Shown: positions 40,879-59,621 of the stretch, piece by piece
How positions within the stretch are numbered: the first letter of the stretch is position 1
Layout: every line of letters starts with the position of its first letter
Origin: Candidatus Latescibacterota bacterium
GTDB taxonomy: Bacteria; Latescibacterota; UBA2968; GCA-2709665
NCBI GenBank assembly: GCA_965203805.1
Contig: OZ241917.1
Location: 3,168,001-3,232,000 of the forward strand
Direction of reading: 5' to 3'
DNA: 64,000 bases
Program-made: the position numbers and the translations under genes
The notes under the pieces: generated by a model
What the model was told of the DNA's origin: nothing
The model's input: the letters and a program-made list of their open reading frames with translations, nothing else
The model's database searches: none

Positions 40879-41880
40879 CTATTTCCATTTGAAAACGACG
40901 CCCAGCGCGTCTCCGGGATCGTCGGCGAGCATCGTGTAGATTTCCTGGCACTGTTCCGGATCCGCGACGTGGGTGATGAGGTCTTCGACGGGCAACTTGC
41001 CCGCTCCCATCAGGCGCATCACCAGCGCCCGGTCCCGTTCCTTCGCCCACCGGTAGTAGATGTGATCGGCCTCCGGCGTTTTGGGCTGGTGGGCGCCCAG
41101 GATGCTGACTTCCCTCAGATGCACGTCGGCCAGAAAATCCATGTCGACGGTACCGCGCGGGGAACCCAATGCGACCACACGGCCCGCCGTGCACGCGAGC
41201 CGGACGGCGGTGGGATAAACCGCGGGTTTTCCGGTCGCTTCGATCACGACGTTGGCGCCGTCTTCCACGCAGTGTCCGCCGACCGCGTCCCTGACGTCGT
41301 CCACGTCGCCGGGATTGATGCAGACACCGGCGCCGCGGCGACGCGCCGCGTCCAGGCGGAAACCGTCCAGGTCGACGGCGATCACCGGGAGGGCGCCGGA
41401 GAGGCGCGCGAGGGTCGCGGCGAGCTGACCGACGATTCCCAGGCCGATGACGACCACGACCTCGCCCAATTCGATGCGCGCCACGCGGATTCCGTGGATG
41501 GCGATTGCGCCCATGACCATAAAGGCGGCGGCCCGGGACGACACGGCGTCGGGTACCTGCCGATGGAACGACCTGGCGCCCGAGAGGACGGAATGGCTCG
41601 CGTGGTTCCCCTGTCCGGCAACGCGGTCGCCGGGGCGGATGCCCTCAACGTCTCTGCCGACTTCCAGGACCGTGCCGACGTTGCAATAGCCGGTGCCGCG
41701 GGGGAAACGGACCGGGTTACCGGGTTCGCCTCCATGCGTCCAGCCGTGGATCTCGGTTCCGACGCTGACGGCGGTGTACTCGTTTTCGATAAGCACACCG
41801 TCATCCGGTACAGGCCCGGTCTCGAAGGACGCGACTTCCATCCGGCGAATGCCGGGAATGAGGAGACGTCTGGCTTTCAT
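40879..41880 (-). CDS. MDR-family alcohol dehydrogenase-like
   Basis: SVGTE, GYCNVG, GDRV, GLGIVG, IEATG. Confidence 0.85.
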   Translation of the reverse strand: MKARRLLIPGIRRMEVASFETGPVPDDGVLIENEYTAVSVGTEIHGWTHGGEPGNPVRFPRGTGYCNVGTVLEVGRDVEGIRPGDRVAGQGNHASHSVLSGARSFHRQVPDAVSSRAAAFMVMGAIAIHGIRVARIELGEVVVVIGLGIVGQLAATLARLSGALPVIAVDLDGFRLDAARRRGAGVCINPGDVDDVRDAVGGHCVEDGANVVIEATGKPAVYPTAVRLACTAGRVVALGSPRGTVDMDFLADVHLREVSILGAHQPKTPEADHIYYRWAKERDRALVMRLMGAGKLPVEDLITHVADPEQCQEIYTMLADDPGDALGVVFKWK

Positions 41881-41966
41881 CTGCAAGTCCTTTCAATATG
41901 GTCGATCGCGGACGCAACGGGAAATGGTGACGGGCGCGGGATCCCGCCTGCCGGCGGGCGCGGTTC

Positions 41967-43004
41967 CTACGCCTGCCCGAGGTCCAGGGTCTCGCGGAAG
42001 AGTCGAAGGAAGTTGCCGCCCCAGACCTTGCGGATTTCGTTTTCCGAGAGGCCGCGGGCGAGCATGGCGCGGGTGAGCCGCACGAGCTTTGAGACGTCTC
42101 CGAAAACCGGAGTAGCCGAACCCATGCCGTCGTAGTCGGAGCCGACGGCAACGTGGTCGATGCCCACCAGGTCCGCCACGTAACAGATATGGTCGACCAT
42201 TCGATCCACGGAAGGGTTTTCCGGATCGATAAAGCCCGGGAGAAACGCAATGCCCATCACCCCGCCGGCCCCGGCCAGCGCCCTGAGTTGATCGTCGGTC
42301 AGGCAGCGCCAGTGGTTGCAGACGGAGAAGGCCGCGGTGTGGGTCATCGTTACCGGGAGCGAAGACCGCTCCAGAACCTGGTAGAAAGCCCTGTCGTTAA
42401 TATGGGCCAGGTCCGTGATGATGCCCAGCCGGTTGCTCTCCTCAAGTACGGCTCTGCCAAAGTCCGTCAACCCGCCGGCGCTTCCGCGTTCCCGTTCGCG
42501 GTCTTCAGGCGTGCACGGCCCGAACGGACTCCTGCTGCCCTGCAGCAAGGAGGGGTCGTCGCCGCCTTCGCCGTGGGTGATTCCGATGCAGCGAATTCCC
42601 AGGCGGTGGTAAAGACGCAATGTGTCCATTTCTCCTTCCAGCCAGCGCCCGGCGCCTTCGATCGTAAGCAGGATGCCGATCTTGCCGGTTTTTCTCGCCC
42701 GTTCAACATCCCGTGACGAGAACACCAGCATCAGGTCATCGGGATATCGCTCCACCGACGCCAGGGTCTGTTCCAGGGTAACCCGGACGTTTGCCGTGGG
42801 GCCGTTGCCGATCACGAAAAAGCCGGCGTCGAACCCGCCTTCTTTCATCCGGGGAATGTCCATATGGTAGGCATCGTCCCGTTTTTTCAGGTCCATCGGA
42901 CGTTCGCCCCGGTGCACGCGCTCCACGGGCGTGTCGTTGTGGCCGTCGACGATCAGGCACCTGTCGTGGACCGCCTGCGCTTCTTCAAGGGTGATTTCCG
43001 GCAT
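41967..43004 (-). CDS. Membrane dipeptidase (M19) family
   Basis: DGHND, IEG, DLAH, GSDYDG, GGNFLR. Confidence 0.9.
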   Translation of the reverse strand: MPEITLEEAQAVHDRCLIVDGHNDTPVERVHRGERPMDLKKRDDAYHMDIPRMKEGGFDAGFFVIGNGPTANVRVTLEQTLASVERYPDDLMLVFSSRDVERARKTGKIGILLTIEGAGRWLEGEMDTLRLYHRLGIRCIGITHGEGGDDPSLLQGSRSPFGPCTPEDRERERGSAGGLTDFGRAVLEESNRLGIITDLAHINDRAFYQVLERSSLPVTMTHTAAFSVCNHWRCLTDDQLRALAGAGGVMGIAFLPGFIDPENPSVDRMVDHICYVADLVGIDHVAVGSDYDGMGSATPVFGDVSKLVRLTRAMLARGLSENEIRKVWGGNFLRLFRETLDLGQA

Positions 43005-43074: not shown

Positions 43075-44397
43075 CTACGGCGGATCGACGGGTACTTTCC
43101 GGTTCTTGGGGACCAGCGGATCGTACGTGAAACCGTCGGAGCGTTTTTCGAACTCCGCGCGCGCCTTCTTCAGGAGATCCGGATCCCTGCAGAGATCGAC
43201 CGCACTTCCGGCGAATACCTTCGCTGTCTGCCGGATCGCGCGCTCGGCGAAAGGCAGGGCGGCCTGCGCGGCCATGTCCCGGTGGTGGCCGGGCGTACCC
43301 TTCGCGTAACAGACCATCTCGAAGCGACCCAGGGGCGCCAGCCATGAAACATTGTCCTCGTCGGTAGACCCCCTGCCCTGCGAGCCGCTGCCCTTGCCGA
43401 TCTTCGTATTGAATCCCTTCTTGTATCCCAGGGCCTCGGCGCGCTCCCGGTCGGCTTCCGTGGGTTTGGGCGGCCCGAACAGTTTCAGATTCTCTCGAAC
43501 GATTTCACACATCGCCTTGTTGGGCAGACGGGGGTACACCGCGGTGATGCGCGACCACTTCATCTTCGTGTCCGTGGCTCTGGCCGCGCCCCGTGCGCAT
43601 CCGGTGAGACGCTCGCGCACGCCGTCGACCTGCTTGCGGTCTTTCCCCCGCACGAAGTACCAGATTTTCGCATAGGCCGGAACCACGTTGGGCGCGTCGC
43701 CTCCATCGCGGATCACGGAATGGATCCTGACGTTCTCGGGGACATGCTCCCGGAGATAGTTGGCGGCAATATCCGTGAGCATCACCCCGTCCAGCGCGCT
43801 GCGGCCCCGGTGGGCCGACGCCCCGTGGGCGGTACGGCCGAAGAATTCGTAGACGACGGAGTCCAGCGACGATCCGCCGAAATTATTGACGCCGGAAGTG
43901 TCTCCCGGATGCCAGGCGAGGCAGGCGTCCAGGTCCCGGAACGCGCCGTCGCGGGCCATATAGACTTTGCCGGCCAGCGTCTCTTCCGCCGGGCAGCCGT
44001 AGTAGACGATTTTTCCGGATGTACCGGTCGATTCGAGAGTCTTCGCAGCGGCGACCGCACCCACGGCCGGGGCAACGCCCAGGAGATTGTGGCCTCAGCC
44101 GTGACCCCATTGCCCCTCCTCGGGGCCGCAGTTGGGCAACGCGTCGTATTCGCCGAGCATCCCGACCGCCGGTTTACCGGCGCCGCTGGCCGCGCGAAAT
44201 GCCGTGGGGATATTCTTGAACGGGAACTCGACGTCGAAGCCGCGCGAGGCCAGGTAGTCCGCGATGGCCCGGGAGGATTTGACCTCCCGGAAGGGCCGCT
44301 CCGCCCACGCGTGCACCCGGCGGGAGAGGACCCTGGCGCGTTTTGACTCTGCGGCGACGGCGCGATTGACGAGACTCTTTTTTTCTTTTGGCTTCAT
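43075..44397 (-). CDS. M20D/AbgB-like amidohydrolase with in-frame TGA at the metal-binding Cys (putative selenocysteine, codon 101)
   Basis: ORFs 44095..44484 and 43075..44064 are in the same frame and separated by one TGA: EYDALP...GHG-TGA-GHNLLG. Downstream GCPAEE, WHP, GRSALD, NVVP and GSTD motifs are intact. Confidence 0.8.
44065..44094 (-). promoter_or_regulatory. Candidate bacterial SECIS element
   Basis: After the UGA: GGCCACAAUCUCCUGGGC-GUU-GCCCCGGCC; the apical loop starts with G, 18 nt after the UGA. Confidence 0.5.
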
Positions 44398-44452
44398 GAG
44401 GTTCCCCTTTCCATCCTGTCCATGTTTATTCCGAATTCTTGTACCGAATGCA

Positions 44453-45541
44453 TTAAGGGTTTGCGACGGCATCGGCCACCGCATCGCCCGCCTCGCGCGT
44501 CCCGGCGGCGCCGCCCAGGTCTGCAGGGTGGTTCTTAGGACTCTCCAGCGTTCGATCCACGGCGCGGTCGATCGTCTCCGAGGCGGCGGTGGCTTCGGGA
44601 TCGTTGCGGCGCGCGCCCAGCCAGGACAGCATCATCCCCGCGGACAGGATCTGAGCCATGGGGTTGGCAATACCCTCCCCCGCGATATCGGGTGCGGTGC
44701 CGTGGGACGGCTGAAAGACGCCGTAGCGGTCCCCCACGTCCGCGGACGGCGCCATCCCCATTCCGCCGATGGTGGCGGCGGCCAGATCGGAGATGATATC
44801 CCCGAACATATTTTCCGCGACGACGACGTCGTACCAGCCTGGGTTGCGCAGTTGGTACACGGTGAATGCGTCCACGTAGGCGTAGTCCCGTTCGACGTCG
44901 GGATAGGTCTCCGCGACCTCGTCGTAGATCTGCCGGAAGAACGCCATGCTCTTCAGAATGTTGGCCTTGTCGACCGAGGTGACGCGGCTGGCGCCGTCCG
45001 CGGGCGCCCCCTTCCGCTGCCTCGCGATTTCAAAGGCGTACCGGACGATCCGCTCGGTCCCGGCGCGGGTGATCACCATGTTGTCCACGGCGAGGCTGTC
45101 GCCGACGCGAACCCCGGCGCCGCGGGAGGCATAGAGGCCCTCTGTATTCTCACGCAGGATGACGTAATCGAGCGGCGGATCTCCATCGAGAAGCGGAGGC
45201 ACGCCGCGGTATTTCTTGATGGGCCGGATCCCGGCGTAAAGGTCCAGTTCGAAGCGGAGTGTCAGTTGGGGTGCGATTTCCGTGCCGTCGGGAAAGCGGA
45301 CGTCCGGATCGCCGGCCGAGCCGAAGAGCACGGCATCGGCCTGTTTGCAGGCTTCGAGCGTGGATTCCGGGAGGTCTTCGCCGGTCTCGGCGTAACACCC
45401 CGCGCCCACCGGATGTTCGGAAAACGTGAATCGAAGATCGGGATGCGGCTCCTCCAGGGCGAGGAGCACTTTGAGCGATTCCGCGACCACTTCCGGGCCG
45501 ACGCCGTCTCCGGGGAGCACCGCGATGTTGTACGTTGGCAT
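44453..45541 (-). CDS. Isopropylmalate/tartrate beta-decarboxylating dehydrogenase family
   Basis: LPGDGVGPEV, RENTEGLY, VDKANI, NMFGDIISD, HGTAPDIAG. Confidence 0.9.
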   Translation of the reverse strand: MPTYNIAVLPGDGVGPEVVAESLKVLLALEEPHPDLRFTFSEHPVGAGCYAETGEDLPESTLEACKQADAVLFGSAGDPDVRFPDGTEIAPQLTLRFELDLYAGIRPIKKYRGVPPLLDGDPPLDYVILRENTEGLYASRGAGVRVGDSLAVDNMVITRAGTERIVRYAFEIARQRKGAPADGASRVTSVDKANILKSMAFFRQIYDEVAETYPDVERDYAYVDAFTVYQLRNPGWYDVVVAENMFGDIISDLAAATIGGMGMAPSADVGDRYGVFQPSHGTAPDIAGEGIANPMAQILSAGMMLSWLGARRNDPEATAASETIDRAVDRTLESPKNHPADLGGAAGTREAGDAVADAVANP

Positions 45542-45551
45542 TCCCGTCCTT

Positions 45552-46730
45552 TCAGATTATGGCGTTCCGTGAAGGGCGGCGTGGGCGCTGGCGATCGTGG
45601 ATGCCGATGCGGAATCCGCCCGCTGACTTCACGCCCCGTTCCAGGACGTCCGGTTCGACGTCGAATCCCGCGCCGGGCGTTTCAGGGACGACCAGCCTGC
45701 CGTTTCGCATCCGCCATCCGTCCAGGACGATGCCCGGCATGTCCGCGGGGGCCGCTTCCAGGAGGCTGAAGTTGGGAATGGACGCGGCGAAATGGGCATG
45801 GGCGTACCGTTCGATGACGCTGCCCCAGCAATGGGGGGCGCACCTCGCGCCCCAGGGTTGGATACGGTCGGCGATGGCTTTCCACCGCGTCAGCCCCTTG
45901 TTTCGGAAGTCGTGCTGCACGATATCGATCCATCCTCTTTCGACCATATCGAAGAAGTCGGGCGGAGGCGGCCCGGATTCGCCGTCGGCCACGAGCGTGT
46001 GGTAGCCTCTCCGGTCAATGGCTTCCTTAAAGGCCTCGTTGAACGCCCGGTCTTCGGGAAAGGGTTCTTCGAACCAGTAGATCCCCGCGTCCCGGCAGCG
46101 TTCGAGAATGTCCAGCGCGATATTGAGCGTGGCGCCGTTGTTGGCGTCAACGAGAATTTTCGCGTCCGGTCCCGCGGCTTCCCGGACCGCGTGGATCACC
46201 AGTACGTCCCTGTCCGTGCCTTCGCGAACCGGCATCCAGCGCGCGCCGCGCCCGATCTTGATTTTGAAATTGCAGTAGCCGGAATCGCGGCCGACCTTGA
46301 CTTCCTCGTGGAAGATTCGCCGCGCCCCGTCGTCTGCGGTTCCCAGGTCGTCAATGTAGATGGAACCGTCGTAGAGTTCCACCTCTCGGGCGCCGCGCGC
46401 GCCCAGGAGCTTGAAAAGGGGCGCCCCTTCACATCTGGCGGCCAGGTCCCACAGAGGCAGATCGATCGGCGCGCCATCGGCGGTCGACCCGCCCGGTAGT
46501 TCAAAGAGCGCCGAGGGGCGCATTCCGAGCAGTGCTTCGGCGCGCTCCCTGCCAATGGCGGACCAGCCGATACCCACGGCGCCGCCCGTGGTGCAGATGC
46601 GCACGACCGGATCGGTGACGGCGGGACCATGGACGCCGATCCGGGCATTGGATCCCACGACGCGCGGGCGCTTTCCGTGCAGTACGACCTTTTCGATCCT
46701 GGCGATCGGGTCGGAAAAAGCAATTGACAT
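45552..46730 (-). CDS. Mandelate racemase/enolase superfamily protein
   Basis: DLPLWDL, KIKIG, VDAN, WFEEP, DGE, PHCWG. Confidence 0.85.
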   Translation of the reverse strand: MSIAFSDPIARIEKVVLHGKRPRVVGSNARIGVHGPAVTDPVVRICTTGGAVGIGWSAIGRERAEALLGMRPSALFELPGGSTADGAPIDLPLWDLAARCEGAPLFKLLGARGAREVELYDGSIYIDDLGTADDGARRIFHEEVKVGRDSGYCNFKIKIGRGARWMPVREGTDRDVLVIHAVREAAGPDAKILVDANNGATLNIALDILERCRDAGIYWFEEPFPEDRAFNEAFKEAIDRRGYHTLVADGESGPPPPDFFDMVERGWIDIVQHDFRNKGLTRWKAIADRIQPWGARCAPHCWGSVIERYAHAHFAASIPNFSLLEAAPADMPGIVLDGWRMRNGRLVVPETPGAGFDVEPDVLERGVKSAGGFRIGIHDRQRPRRPSRNAII

Positions 46731-46849
46731 GAAGGGTTTCCGGGATCCGGGTTGGGTGTACGATCCGGTAAAGTAAGCCAAAAACCAGGGGTTGGAAATC
46801 AAAAAAGCCGGCGTCACAGGGCGCCTCTATCGCACACGGCATTTAGGTC

Positions 46850-50864: not shown

Positions 50865-52940
50865 TTAAACCGAACCCAGGCTCTTCAGGATCTTCGCGAC
50901 AATGGCATCCGTGTCGCGGATTCCGACTCCGGACAGCCGCTCCAGGATCATCCCCTGCGGGTCCACCAGGAAATAGGCCGGAATCCCGCGCACGCTATAG
51001 GCGCCGGTCGTCTTGGAACGCCATGCGCCCGCGCGCACGTGCACCCCTTCGATCTGATGGGTTTCGATGGCTTTGCGCCATTCGGCGTCGCTCGAATCCA
51101 GTGAGAGGTTGAGGAAAACCACCGGCTGACCGGCGGTTTCTTTCTTAATCCTTCTGAGATCGGGCAAGTTGCCGATACACGGACCGCACCAGCTTGCCCA
51201 GAAGTCCAGCAGCACGACCTTGCCCCTGAACTGGCTCAGCGATACGGGCCGGCCGTCCAGATCCTCCAGCGTGAAATCGGGGGCCGGACGTCCCGGCTGG
51301 AGGGCCATCGCCTTGTCCAGCGCCGCCTGGACCGGCGCGTTGTATTCGGGATAGGGATTGGTCGTCCGGTAGTCCCGCCACTTGCGACGGACCAGTTCAA
51401 AGCTGTTGCCGCCGTACTCGAAACTTCGGATCAATTCCCCGGCCAGAAACCAGTAAAGTACGCGCCCATTCAATTTCTTCTCGGCCAGCTCAATCCTGTG
51501 TGGAAGCCTGGGCATGGACCGTTTCCTGATTGCATAGATCGAATCCAGCTTCGCCTGCACCGCCTGCGGCAGGCCCAGACCCGTGAGGTCCAGCTTCCGG
51601 GACAGGCTGAGCGGCTGACGATTTTCGTACAGGGAGTCCAGATGCGCGACAAACTCCGGCGACGGGTCCAATTCCGACAGATCCACCATTTCCGACAACC
51701 TTTGCGTCTTGTGGATCGAATTCAATTGCCCTTCCATGTCCTTGCCTTCTTCTACGGGCAGCCGGAGAACCAGCGAACCGCCTGTGGTATCGATTTCCGG
51801 TTTTTTCAGCTTGCTTGAAGTCGTGATCCTGTACGATCTGCCACTCCTTTCGTAGAAGGAGTCGAGACGGGCGTGAGCTGCCTGGGGGACGCCCAATTTC
51901 GGCAGATCGATGATGTCGGACAGTGTGGATTTACGCCTGTTGTCATACAGCGAGTCAAGTCTGCCTACGACAGGTTTCGGCAGATCCGACGCACCCAGCC
52001 GGATCATTTTCGACAGCTTCGGATGCCACTCGTACCGCGCGTAGAGTGAGTCGAGTTTTGCGACGGTCTCCTCCCGAAGGTCCAGACTCGACAGATCGTA
52101 CTGATCGCTGAGCCTGTTGGACGGCGGCATCCTCATCATTTCCAGGTCCAGCGTCCGGATGAGGTAGGTACTGTACGTACCCATGCCAATTGCCTTTTCG
52201 TCCACCAGCGGGACCCGTTTCAGGAAGTCGTGGAATTCAGGCGGGATATCCGGGTTCTCGCGGCCGGTGGCGCGCCGGTAATTTTCCGGGTATGAAACCT
52301 TCAGAAAGGCATACGTGTAGTTGAAAAAGCGCGTCGCGTACTCGACGAATTCCGGCGAGAACGCGTATCTCGTTCGCCGCATCTCCAGGAATTCAAGCTG
52401 GTCCGTGCGCCACCCGTCCGCCAGGCGGGAGAAGGCTTCCGCGTCCATTTTCCTGGAGTCCCTGATTTCCTTCTGGAAGTCCTGGAACCGGGGGTACCAT
52501 TCGACAATAAACCGGCTGTTGTCCGCATTGTTTCCGCTGAACCGGAACGAGGTGTGGAGACGGCCGGGGTGGATTTTGATATGCAGTCTGTCGCCGGGTT
52601 CGACAAAGAAAACCAGCGAACCGGGCTTGAAGGCATACGACGCGGCCTGCCGCACCCACTTCCATGGGACGCTTCTGCTTTTGAAACTTCCCCTGACGAG
52701 GGTCCCGCGGACGACGGGAATCTCGAGCGCGAACCGGTTCCGGCCGTCCAGAGCCACGCGCTGCTCGGATTGTCGACCCAGTGCCCAGGGCGGGTCGTAA
52801 CGGAACGTGATCTCACGCGACGTGGGGTTGCGTACTTCGCCGGTGATGATCGCGACCGATGGCGGGCCGGTTTCTGACGCCGAGGCGAAAGTCGACATCA
52901 TCATGAAGGCCGCGAGGGTACTGACGAAAAGGTTATTCAT
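50865..52940 (-). CDS. Exported TlpA/ResA-like thioredoxin-domain protein with internal repeats
   Basis: Signal peptide; C-terminal APDFTL...DFWASWCGPC; five LSxxxDL...LDS(L/F/I)Y repeats. Confidence 0.88.
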   Translation of the reverse strand: MNNLFVSTLAAFMMMSTFASASETGPPSVAIITGEVRNPTSREITFRYDPPWALGRQSEQRVALDGRNRFALEIPVVRGTLVRGSFKSRSVPWKWVRQAASYAFKPGSLVFFVEPGDRLHIKIHPGRLHTSFRFSGNNADNSRFIVEWYPRFQDFQKEIRDSRKMDAEAFSRLADGWRTDQLEFLEMRRTRYAFSPEFVEYATRFFNYTYAFLKVSYPENYRRATGRENPDIPPEFHDFLKRVPLVDEKAIGMGTYSTYLIRTLDLEMMRMPPSNRLSDQYDLSSLDLREETVAKLDSLYARYEWHPKLSKMIRLGASDLPKPVVGRLDSLYDNRRKSTLSDIIDLPKLGVPQAAHARLDSFYERSGRSYRITTSSKLKKPEIDTTGGSLVLRLPVEEGKDMEGQLNSIHKTQRLSEMVDLSELDPSPEFVAHLDSLYENRQPLSLSRKLDLTGLGLPQAVQAKLDSIYAIRKRSMPRLPHRIELAEKKLNGRVLYWFLAGELIRSFEYGGNSFELVRRKWRDYRTTNPYPEYNAPVQAALDKAMALQPGRPAPDFTLEDLDGRPVSLSQFRGKVVLLDFWASWCGPCIGNLPDLRRIKKETAGQPVVFLNLSLDSSDAEWRKAIETHQIEGVHVRAGAWRSKTTGAYSVRGIPAYFLVDPQGMILERLSGVGIRDTDAIVAKILKSLGSV

Positions 52941-57791: not shown

Positions 57792-59621
57792 CTATTGAGA
57801 GTTATATTCGGACATCTTGCGTTTAACGAGATCTACCAATCCTTCGCCGCGCAGGTTTTTCGCGATGATCTCCCCATCGGGGGCAATGAGAAACGTGGTT
57901 GGCCACGCTACAATACCGTAAACTTTCTCGATTTCCTCGTTTGAAACACCGTTGGAATACGGAATCTCGCGAATTCTTATGGTATCTTCCAGGTCTCTTG
58001 GATTATCGTGAGCCAGACCAATGATCGTAAGGCCCCCGTCCGGGAATGATTGGTGGAGTTTCTTGAGATTTGGCAGTTCGTTTATGCAGGGTCCGCACCA
58101 GGTCGCCCAGAAATCAAGAAATACAAACCCCCCTCGGTAATCGGATAACCGCAACGAATCTCCTCCAACGGCCGGCGCCACGAATTCGGGTGCGGCACTT
58201 TCTTCTCCCAGTTCCAGTGCATTCGACATCCTTTCAACGCCGCTGCCCTGGACCGTCCTGGAATTCGGATATTTGCGAATCAGATAATTCAGAACGTTGC
58301 GCGCGGCAACTGCGTTTCCGTAATCCCGGAAATGTTGTGCCGCACGCCAGAGCAGTTTTTCCCCTTCACGTGAACCGGGCGGCAGGTTTCGTTCCTGCGC
58401 CACCAGAATGCCGGTAAAGAAAAAAGGCGGAACGTTGTATTTCTCGCTGAGATCCGGTGCGTGTTGTAGCCCTTCATCGAGGCGCAGATAGGTGATTGTA
58501 TCGTACGTCCTAAAGAAAATGGAATTCGGATCCATTTTCTTTGCCAACTGCGCCATCTGGCTAAAGTAGCTCTCGTAGACCGTACTCTGATAGTGCTCCC
58601 TTCTCTTTTCTTCGAACTCCTGTTTATTGTGTTTCAGACTTTGCAAACCCTTCATCGCTTCAGCGTGGGGATGAAATCTTTTCAGGAATTCAAATCTGAT
58701 TTTTACGAAGAGCTGTTCGAAATAAGCGGGGTATCGATTCGCAATTTCCCGGAATCTTTCTTCGCGCTCGATAAAGGCGGAAACGTCGTTCTCTGAGGAT
58801 TGGGTGGTGTCGCGTTTGCTGAACAGAACCTGCATGTTTTCTTTTTGGAAAGTGTAGATTTCATCCACAAGACTGGCGAAGGCAGTCTGGTGTTGTCCAC
58901 CTGAGAATTCGGCTCTTGAATCCCTCTTCGGCTGGACATACTGAGATGGATCAAAGATGATCTCTCCACCTTCGTAGATTGAATTGAATGTAACGAAACT
59001 ACGAGGGTTAGGAACTGCCTGGGAATGACTCAAGTCATAAACGTCGCTACCACCGTTACTTACGATAAACCTATACCCGTCACCGATTTTTACGGGATTA
59101 TCGCCTTGTAGAACCCACACGCTATCCTTCCTCACCATTTCAATCGCGCCCCACGGCCGCCATCGACAAAAGTCACCCCACAGTTTGACCCATTCAATGC
59201 CGGGTTTCAGACCGAAGGGTTCAAGATAAGCCGTCACATTTGCGTGCGTGTCGGCGTCAGGAACAAGCACCGACGTTTTTAACGTCTCATAACCGAAAGC
59301 GGAGATAACAAGCGTATACAGCCCGGGTTCCACGTCGAAACTAAATTCCGTAGTGTCTAGCGTCCTGGTGTTTTTCGGCCTGACGACAAAGGGCATCCAC
59401 GCCAATTTCAATTCTTCTATCCCCACATAAATTGAATCCGGAATCGCCTTGTCGTTAAACTTGACCGTCCCCGAAACAGTCGATCTGGAAGGCTTACGCT
59501 CTCCCGGTCGACCCGAGATTTCCAGGTCCGGCTCCTGCACAACAGACAGCAACGAGTCCGTTGACGCCGAAACGTCGCCGGAAAGGAAGAGGAAAAGTGC
59601 AGTAGCGATTCTCAATATCAT
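57792..59621 (-). CDS. Exported TlpA-like thioredoxin-domain protein
   Basis: Signal peptide; N-terminal beta-sandwich (PGLYTLVISAFGY); C-terminal DFWATWCGPC...PTTFLI. Confidence 0.85.
   Translation of the reverse strand: MILRIATALFLFLSGDVSASTDSLLSVVQEPDLEISGRPGERKPSRSTVSGTVKFNDKAIPDSIYVGIEELKLAWMPFVVRPKNTRTLDTTEFSFDVEPGLYTLVISAFGYETLKTSVLVPDADTHANVTAYLEPFGLKPGIEWVKLWGDFCRWRPWGAIEMVRKDSVWVLQGDNPVKIGDGYRFIVSNGGSDVYDLSHSQAVPNPRSFVTFNSIYEGGEIIFDPSQYVQPKRDSRAEFSGGQHQTAFASLVDEIYTFQKENMQVLFSKRDTTQSSENDVSAFIEREERFREIANRYPAYFEQLFVKIRFEFLKRFHPHAEAMKGLQSLKHNKQEFEEKRREHYQSTVYESYFSQMAQLAKKMDPNSIFFRTYDTITYLRLDEGLQHAPDLSEKYNVPPFFFTGILVAQERNLPPGSREGEKLLWRAAQHFRDYGNAVAARNVLNYLIRKYPNSRTVQGSGVERMSNALELGEESAAPEFVAPAVGGDSLRLSDYRGGFVFLDFWATWCGPCINELPNLKKLHQSFPDGGLTIIGLAHDNPRDLEDTIRIREIPYSNGVSNEEIEKVYGIVAWPTTFLIAPDGEIIAKNLRGEGLVDLVKRKMSEYNSQ

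Follow-up and report, generated by a model that had tools for sequence, protein, structure and literature searches.

An M20D amidohydrolase gene of Latescibacterota with an in-frame UGA predicted to encode selenocysteine

Results

An M20D amidohydrolase gene broken once by UGA

A gene for an M20D amidohydrolase in the marine Candidatus Latescibacterota bacterium carries an in-frame UGA codon that is very probably decoded as selenocysteine (Sec). The gene lies on the minus strand of a 64,000-nucleotide (nt) stretch of contig OZ241917.1 (assembly GCA_965203805.1, positions 3,168,001 to 3,232,000), hereinafter designated the window, and positions below are those of the window unless genome coordinates are given. 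We put at roughly 90% the probability that its product is a full-length M20D amidohydrolase of the HmrA/PM20D2-like branch, with Sec inserted at UGA codon 101. Specifically, the minus-strand frame from 44397 to 43075 is a single open reading frame (ORF) of 440 codons, broken once by the TGA at 44097-44095 (CAA TGG GGT CAC GGC TGA GGC CAC AAT CTC CTG GGC GTT GCC CCG GCC on that strand). With TGA translated as U, the frame yields 440 residues, with U101 within QWGHG-U-GHNLLGVAPA; with translation table 11, the same frame is listed as two pieces (44095..44484 and 43075..44064). The motifs CPAEE, AWHPG, GRSALD and RGSTDED downstream of U101 are all kept. The protein scores 183.9 bits against the curated cut-off of 153.75 for the NCBIfam model TIGR01891 “amidohydrolase” (M20D), and the Pfam domain M20_dimer, a dimerisation domain inserted in the catalytic domain, is found at residues 181-270.

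An earlier note on the window had described one frame broken by this single TGA, with PAEE, WHP, GRSALD and GSTD intact downstream, and had proposed a selenoprotein hydrolase. The description agrees with the frame, the 440-residue translation and the motifs found in it, and the proposal is supported by TGA conservation, Sec machinery and purifying selection. The note had also suggested looking at sequence support for the TGA, Sec machinery, recurrent TGA/Cys pairs at this column, selection downstream of the TGA and selenoprotein catalogues; the corresponding results, all in its favour, are given below.

Conservation of the UGA and selection on both sides of it

The position of the TGA is conserved far beyond chance. 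Among 61 relatives searched at E <= 1e-30, 52 match the protein, 49 of them over the full length with exactly one TGA and 70-100% identity, and the TGA column is identical in all 49 (WGHG-U-GHNLLG). A sample of 168 Latescibacterota genomes searched at E <= 1e-60 gives matches in 73, including 55 with a single TGA; one orthologue (67% identity) has Cys, and the other matches (<=46% identity) contain no stop. The UGA is retained across three families of the phylum. Genome matches together with additional loci from the contig collection make up 53 unique genes with the TGA (Sec forms), and 336-340 codons are open 3’ of the TGA in all 53.

Selection acts on both sides of the TGA. The ratio of nonsynonymous to synonymous substitution rates (dN/dS; Nei-Gojobori, 14 pairs) is 0.042-0.127 downstream and 0.026-0.248 upstream, showing that selection behind the TGA is purifying and not relaxed. 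At codons +1 to +5 after the TGA (G, H, N, L, L), the amino acids are 100% conserved and synonymous sites vary freely in 53 of 53 genes.

All non-TGA homologues have Cys at the TGA column, namely 52 unique genes of other lineages and 101 full-length database proteins. The genes of other lineages belong to Kiritimatiellae, Planctomycetota, Lentisphaerae, Armatimonadota, Aminicenantes, Clostridia and Alphaproteobacteria. TGA recurs at one column in relatives, and Cys occupies it in more distant homologues. In an alignment of 52 sequences, U/C101 coincides with the only invariant Cys, and H99, G102, H103, E138, E139, H163, H191 and H371 are invariant.

The TGA is also supported by independent sequence. 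Of 22 listed runs, 20 contain the stretch; they come from seven studies and bear sponge, coral or marine metagenome labels. In one of the other studies, a DNA contig (X4) spans 43166-44500 with seven differences, none of them in the TGA. A 152-nt contig from an RNA library (X20), which is no proof of transcription, extends across the TGA by 69 nt or more in both directions, and its differences fall outside the TGA and outside both hairpins described below. Two further RNA-library contigs, X18, which ends 25 nt past the TGA, and X19, which does not cover the TGA, are uninformative for the parts that they do not cover.

A plain nonsense pseudogene, or an assembly error at the TGA, is hardly conceivable in view of these results. 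In Priestia megaterium, a broken M20D gene does have a TGA at this Cys codon as a simple lesion, but here the TGA is kept in 55 genomes with intact frames and downstream dN/dS of 0.04-0.13, and the contig from the independent study argues against an assembly error. We are highly confident, on these comparative grounds, that the gene is a genuine selenoprotein gene.

The codons directly after the TGA bear on another possibility, namely that translation stops at the UGA and a separate 329-residue protein is made from GTG 44064, as gene callers annotate the locus. This GTG is in frame 11 codons after the TGA, and databases store the Sec forms of relatives as 294-351-residue fragments, one of them titled “peptidase dimerization domain-containing protein”. 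The ten codons from TGA to GTG (GHNLLGVAPA) are nevertheless translated, because the protein is invariant there while codons +1 to +5 are synonymously free, and an invariant peptide at this place contradicts a split gene. Moreover, a split would strip His103 and the residue-101 ligand from both products, and the structural model described below folds as one domain across the residue-101 junction, with predicted local distance difference test (pLDDT) values of 94-97 around residue 101. We consider the split gene very improbable.

A pattern scan for G-H-[GA]-TGA-G-H-[ND]..G gave at least 119 stretches, of which 80 were listed. Among the matches listed beyond the Latescibacterota type, there are only chance matches, one gene in a metagenome-assembled genome (MAG) labelled Planctomycetota (L181) and the broken Priestia gene (L176). 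L181 is a Sec-form gene of the Latescibacterota type, with 72% identity and the same hairpin peptide; its label may reflect mislabelling, a binning error or gene transfer. L176, on a Priestia megaterium contig, is an M20D gene split into several frames, with TGA as its codon at the Cys position; it looks like a plain pseudogene, in contrast to the conserved Sec forms.

Selenocysteine machinery of the host genome

The host genome, a single contig of 5.87 Mb, contains the complete set of Sec genes that was looked for. Specifically, selA (477 bits) is followed directly downstream by selB (370.7 bits), a tRNA-SeC(tca) gene predicted by ARAGORN adjoins selB, and selD (358.7 bits) is present with one in-frame TGA of its own. 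UGA is the commonest stop codon, ending 1407 (56%) of the 2494 stop-to-stop frames that have 400 codons or more, and is therefore not reassigned in this genome. tRNA-SeC is the sole UGA-reading tRNA that ARAGORN predicts among 51 tRNA genes.

The distribution of the machinery among relatives is consistent with these findings. SelA is detected in 54 of the 55 genomes with a TGA form (E <= 1e-60). In the remaining one (G032, 430 contigs), a Sec-containing selD is present, together with part of SelB at the end of a contig. No selA, selB or selD above cut-off was found in the genome of the Cys orthologue (G059, 86% complete) or in its congener (G055, 90%). In this genus (g14), the pattern looks like loss of the Sec trait with replacement of Sec by Cys.

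As an alternative, read-through of the UGA could insert one of the standard amino acids (Trp, Cys, Arg or Gly), through near-cognate decoding or an overlooked suppressor tRNA. The inserted residue cannot be named from the nucleotide sequence, and the two hairpins 3’ of the UGA are both unlike the textbook single selenocysteine insertion sequence (SECIS) hairpin. We regard this alternative as improbable because the only tRNA predicted to read UGA is tRNA-SeC(tca), because UGA terminates more than half of the long frames, and because Cys in every non-TGA homologue at this column makes a classic Sec/Cys pair, with the Cys orthologue sitting in a genus without detected Sec machinery.

The Sec forms also share a feature at their 3’ ends. 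All 53 stop at TAG (41) or TAA (12) and never at TGA, which is notable because of the share of TGA among the stops of this genome, although kinship could explain it instead of avoidance.

Other genes of the genome contain single in-frame TGA codons. selD, at G000:C1:2775468-2776391 outside the window, reads RTCG-U-AAKVSP and has a hairpin with a GGUC loop after the UGA; it is itself a predicted selenoprotein gene. Five other family matches have exactly one in-frame TGA, namely two AhpC/TSA, one molybdopterin/FdhA-type, one Rdx/SelW-like and one AhpD-like. They are located outside the window (G000:C1 4220148-4220639, 294688-294960, 788555-789826, 5088282-5088500 and 5769297-5769452) and are likely further selenoproteins of the genome.

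RNA elements 3’ of the UGA

RNA codons +5 to +15 after the UGA are synonymously constrained and can fold as two adjacent hairpins, H1 and H2 (Table 1). Third positions of codons +6 to +13 are near-invariant among the 53 genes (GGC 53, GTT 49, GCC 53, CCG 49, GCC 53, GGT 52, GCG 53). The lowest synonymous entropy of 175 eight-codon windows is found for the one starting at +6 (0.06, against a median of 0.734), and the ten lowest-entropy windows all start between +1 and +10. For fourfold-degenerate columns, the contrast between seven within the element and 89 elsewhere (mean 1.43 bits) gives Mann-Whitney p = 6.6e-6, a value in which kinship overstates the independence of the sequences. The peptide GVAPAVGAV is also found in two Cys forms (L321 and L323), but they use other codons for it at the element sites, which ties the synonymous constraint to the UGA; another Cys form (L070) has no H1.

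The consensus fold was calculated with RNAalifold from 44 distinct 63-nt segments. All four base pairs (bp) of H1 are invariant in the 44 sequences, and its loop is GUU, GUA or ACA. Taken jointly, H1 and H2 have 99.8% of cells paired. Variation is seen at pair 30-45 (GC 30, GU 10, AU 3, AC 1) and at pair 35-40 (CG 25, UG 19). A single 12-bp hairpin over both elements (loop GCCG) was rejected as a candidate: 93% of cells pair, 28 of 44 sequences have a mismatch beside the loop, and there is no compensatory change.

H1 is the hairpin that the earlier note had reported, GGGC-GUU-GCCC with the loop G 18 nt after the UGA, and is located at 44080-44070. The note had further placed it between flanking GGCC/GGCC segments. 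These are present in the window, but the third base varies among the 53 genes (C 29, T 17, G 6, A 1), so that the outer pairing is not conserved; the 3’ GGCC pairs instead inside H2 (44069-44052). H2, with 7 bp and an RGGU loop, is an additional hairpin beyond the one reported.

Counted from the U of the UGA, the H1 loop starts at 21 and the H2 loop at 35. The loops that follow the UGA of selD (GGUC), FdhA (GGUC) and SelW (GUU) in the same genome start 20-25 nt from the U, and the position of the H1 loop fits those of selD and FdhA. In the proposed mechanism, SelB carrying Sec-tRNA(Sec) would bind one of the two hairpins and insert Sec at the UGA.

Exchange of selenocysteine and cysteine

A quick IQ-TREE analysis of 104 rows from species genomes separates all 53 Sec forms from the other rows by a single branch, which has support of 98 in the Shimodaira-Hasegawa-like approximate likelihood ratio test (SH-aLRT). 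Metagenome proteins include full-length Cys forms with 70-76% identity. With such forms added, a FastTree tree of 123 rows (70 Cys) has five changes, at least three of which are forced by well-supported branches, and a Sec clade of 25 rows has P0002 and P0004, two Cys forms, as sisters. A single Cys-to-Sec switch was thus rejected: the one change in the 104-row tree becomes five once close metagenomic Cys forms are included, and the one-change tree is a sampling effect. As judged from these trees, Sec and Cys have been interchanged several times among close orthologues. Because all Sec forms share one hairpin sequence, the simplest reading would be that Sec was gained once and that several lineages later returned to Cys.

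A second M20D subfamily with TGA was found in a scan of species genomes for M-H-A-TGA-G-H-D. The scan gave 48 stretches (L271-L318), including 34 intact M20D genes, where intact means at least 90 codons before the TGA, at least 270 after it and no other stop. The 34 genes come from MAGs of Dehalococcoidia, Planctomycetota, Methylomirabilota, Armatimonadota-type bacteria, Deltaproteobacteria, Bacteroidia and Clostridia. In many M-H-A-U-G-H-D genes, the TGA is followed by a hairpin whose loop is of the GGUC type, and SelA is present in five of five tested genomes of this group. These CpsA/YxeP-like genes resemble the gene in the window in belonging to the TIGR01891 family, with scores of their own of 351-397 bits, in having the TGA at the same Cys column and in having a hairpin after the TGA. 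They differ from it in sequence (27% identity over 274 residues), in the motif around U, in hairpin sequence and in the phyla that carry them.

Structural model and metal site

An AlphaFold2 model was calculated from the 52-sequence alignment, with mean pLDDT of 95.4 and predicted template modelling score of 0.92. Its best fold matches are all M20D enzymes, namely HmrA (PDB 3RAM; template modelling (TM) scores of 0.82/0.92), PM20D2 (0.76/0.83) and CsAga (PDB 6SLF; 0.68/0.74). These first two also give the best sequence matches among solved structures: HmrA of Staphylococcus aureus matches with E of 8.5e-42 (profile 1.5e-81), and human PM20D2, a beta-alanyl-lysine / Xaa-Arg dipeptidase (PDB 7YH4, 8ZEL), with E of 3e-33 (profile 3.8e-73). 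In both, the Cys of GHACGHN is aligned to U101. Both differ from the protein in the window in having Cys where UGA/Sec is found here and in sequence (25-27% identity), and the present protein has about 45 extra residues. The likeness to CsAga, an N-alpha-acyl-glutamine aminoacylase of Corynebacterium, is at the subfamily level of fold (profile E 5.8e-19), with 17-18% identity and Cys, not Sec, in CsAga.

The M20D ligand set is present in the family: U/C101, H103, E138, E139, H163 and H371 are invariant in the 52 sequences, with Sec replacing Cys. The roles of E138, E139, H163 and H371 are presumably those of the general base and metal ligands in the M20 family. According to a review (PMC11511702), a cysteine bridges two zinc ions in CsAga (PDB 6SLF). 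By analogy, we are moderately confident that Sec101 is a bridging metal ligand. Specifically, the Sec101 selenolate would stand in for the bridging Cys thiolate between the two metal ions of M20D enzymes; His103, Glu139, His163 and His371 would complete the ligand set, and Glu138 would act as the general base. The likeliest reason for selenium would be resistance of the ligand to irreversible oxidation, or altered metal affinity or selectivity.

Several points weigh against decoding of the UGA as Sec, or against parts of the site proposed for it. Selenium in the protein is predicted from sequence. SelA is widespread, with 131 of the 168 genomes of the phylum having it, so that its co-occurrence with the TGA forms is weakly discriminating, and the genus with the Cys orthologue is the telling case. 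Covariation in the hairpins is weak, since 35 of 500 shuffles reach the observed score and only one pair is changed on both sides (in three sequences); the hairpin structure thus rests mainly on conservation. H1 has only 4 bp, and one sequence has the ACA loop, which contains no G, while H2 has its loop farther from the UGA than is seen for selD, FdhA and SelW of this genome. H1 and H2 are both candidates for the SelB site. Finally, the assignment of Cys101 as a bridge is carried over from CsAga by alignment of the family motif, and is analogical.

Relation to known selenoproteins

To our knowledge, redox catalysis is the function of Sec in nearly all characterised selenoproteins. Binding of a metal by Sec has precedents in hydrogenase and formate dehydrogenase. 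The earlier note had held that a Sec metal ligand in a hydrolase could be new; Sec-metal ligation itself is not, and what would be new is the placement of Sec in a hydrolytic two-metal centre. The M20D protein resembles known proteins with Sec metal ligands in the predicted insertion of Sec at UGA by SelB and a SECIS and in the predicted coordination of metal by selenium. It differs in that the known proteins serve redox chemistry, transport or metal resistance, whereas here a bridging Sec is predicted in a hydrolytic two-metal, non-redox centre.

We consider it probable that M20D represents a previously unrecognised class of selenoenzyme, in which Sec would bridge a hydrolytic non-redox two-metal centre, would have arisen at least twice and would have reverted to Cys upon loss of the Sec machinery, with selenium tuning or protecting the metal site. 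The two origins would be in the HmrA-like subfamily (Latescibacterota) and in the CpsA/YxeP-like subfamily (Dehalococcoidia, Planctomycetota, Methylomirabilota and others). If this is true, a selenolate that bridges the metals of a hydrolase widens the known roles of selenium in enzymes. The genes would also offer a natural Sec/Cys series, with the same enzyme carrying either residue, repeated switches among close relatives and two distant subfamilies.

The selenoprotein catalogues searched record no such use of selenium. By term look-up, neither M20, amidohydrolase nor peptidase is named in the main texts of a 2026 review with a family table (PMC13188914), BSepDB (PMC13326102), deep-Sep (PMC12013277), the Global Ocean Sampling (GOS; PMC2398784), Sargasso Sea (PMC1088965) and Olavius (PMC1976440) studies, a 2022 review (PMC9312934), Peng et al. 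2016 (PMC5029168), Zhang et al. 2006 (PMC1794560) and Haft’s 2022 preprint, although supplementary tables may list such genes. The word “hydrolase” is absent from these main texts, save for one reference title in PMC1088965. A literature search found no paper with a Sec-containing M20 enzyme, and NCBIfam has no selenoprotein-specific model for either M20D subfamily. Because the genes are annotated as truncated fragments, selenoproteome counts and annotation for Latescibacterota, Dehalococcoidia, Planctomycetota and related groups miss them.

Gene neighbourhood

The Sec-form gene lies in a same-strand cluster in the order MR/MLE, Iso_dh, Sec-form M20D, M19, Zn-dehydrogenase-like gene, a gene with no Pfam match, SSF symporter and GFO/IDH/MocA oxidoreductase (Table 1). 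The composition of the cluster suggests that it serves to break down a peptide-like or N-acyl compound. The enzyme would hydrolyse the amide bond of a dipeptide or N-acyl amino acid as part of a catabolic gene cluster.

Table 1 Positions of the Sec-form M20D gene, its sequence elements and neighbouring genes in the window
Feature	Position	Strand	Basis or detail
Full Sec M20D amidohydrolase gene (predicted), 440 codons	43075..44397	-	Start ATG 44397-44395, stop TAG 43077-43075
In-frame UGA, codon 101, predicted to be read as Sec	44095..44097	-	Same column in 53 unique orthologous genes
H99-G-U101-G-H103, the M20D HxCGH metal-binding motif with predicted Sec for Cys	44089..44103	-	Alignment
E138-E139 of PAEE, putative general base and metal ligand	43981..43986	-	Both invariant
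H163 of WHP, putative metal ligand	43909..43911	-	Invariant
H371 of GTPGHH, putative metal ligand	43285..43287	-	Invariant
Hairpin H1, GGGC-GUU-GCCC, 4 bp, loop starts 18 nt after UGA	44070..44080	-	RNAalifold consensus
Hairpin H2, CGGCCGY-RGGU-GCGGUYG, 7 bp, loop starts 32 nt after UGA	44052..44069	-	RNAalifold consensus
M19 dipeptidase, downstream	41967..43004	-	Peptidase_M19 274 bits
Zn-dependent-dehydrogenase-like gene	40879..41886	-	ADH_zinc_N
Isocitrate/isopropylmalate-dehydrogenase-family gene, upstream	44453..45541	-	Iso_dh 307 bits
Enolase-superfamily (MR/MLE) gene, head of same-strand cluster	45552..46817	-	MR_MLE_C 137.5 bits

The neighbours are kept to different degrees. The Zn-dehydrogenase-like gene is the most widely kept neighbour of the Sec forms, with 59-98% identity beside most loci; it is weak or absent beside five Sec-form loci (L089, L090, L092, L094 and L107), and no match to it was found beside the Cys-form loci L097-L151. 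The M19 gene is beside the Sec-form gene only in the window’s own family and is absent at that position in the second family. The Iso_dh gene is kept in the window’s own family and in part of the second, and the MR/MLE gene is at the edge of most loci in the window’s own family. At Cys-form loci of other phyla, the cluster neighbours were not found, except for a weak M19 match in L119.

AbgB shares its operon with AbgA, a second M20D subunit, and with a transporter. No second M20 gene was found among the neighbours between 36 and 51 kb, so an AbgB-type pairing is not seen here, and the other M20D paralogues of the genome are megabases away. The Abg protein of PDB 3IO1 is only a weak match to the protein in the window (E 5e-23); AbgB is the name used by JGI for relatives.

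At position 44434, in the spacer between the Iso_dh and M20D genes, the DNA contig X4 and the RNA-library contig X19 have one base fewer than the window. The missing base may be strain variation or a single-base assembly error. Two long open frames on the minus strand of the window, at 50865-52940 (691 amino acids) and 57864-58196 (within a 627-amino-acid open frame), have AhpC/TSA-redoxin domains. In the frame at 50865-52940, this domain is C-terminal and follows about 540 residues with no Pfam match.

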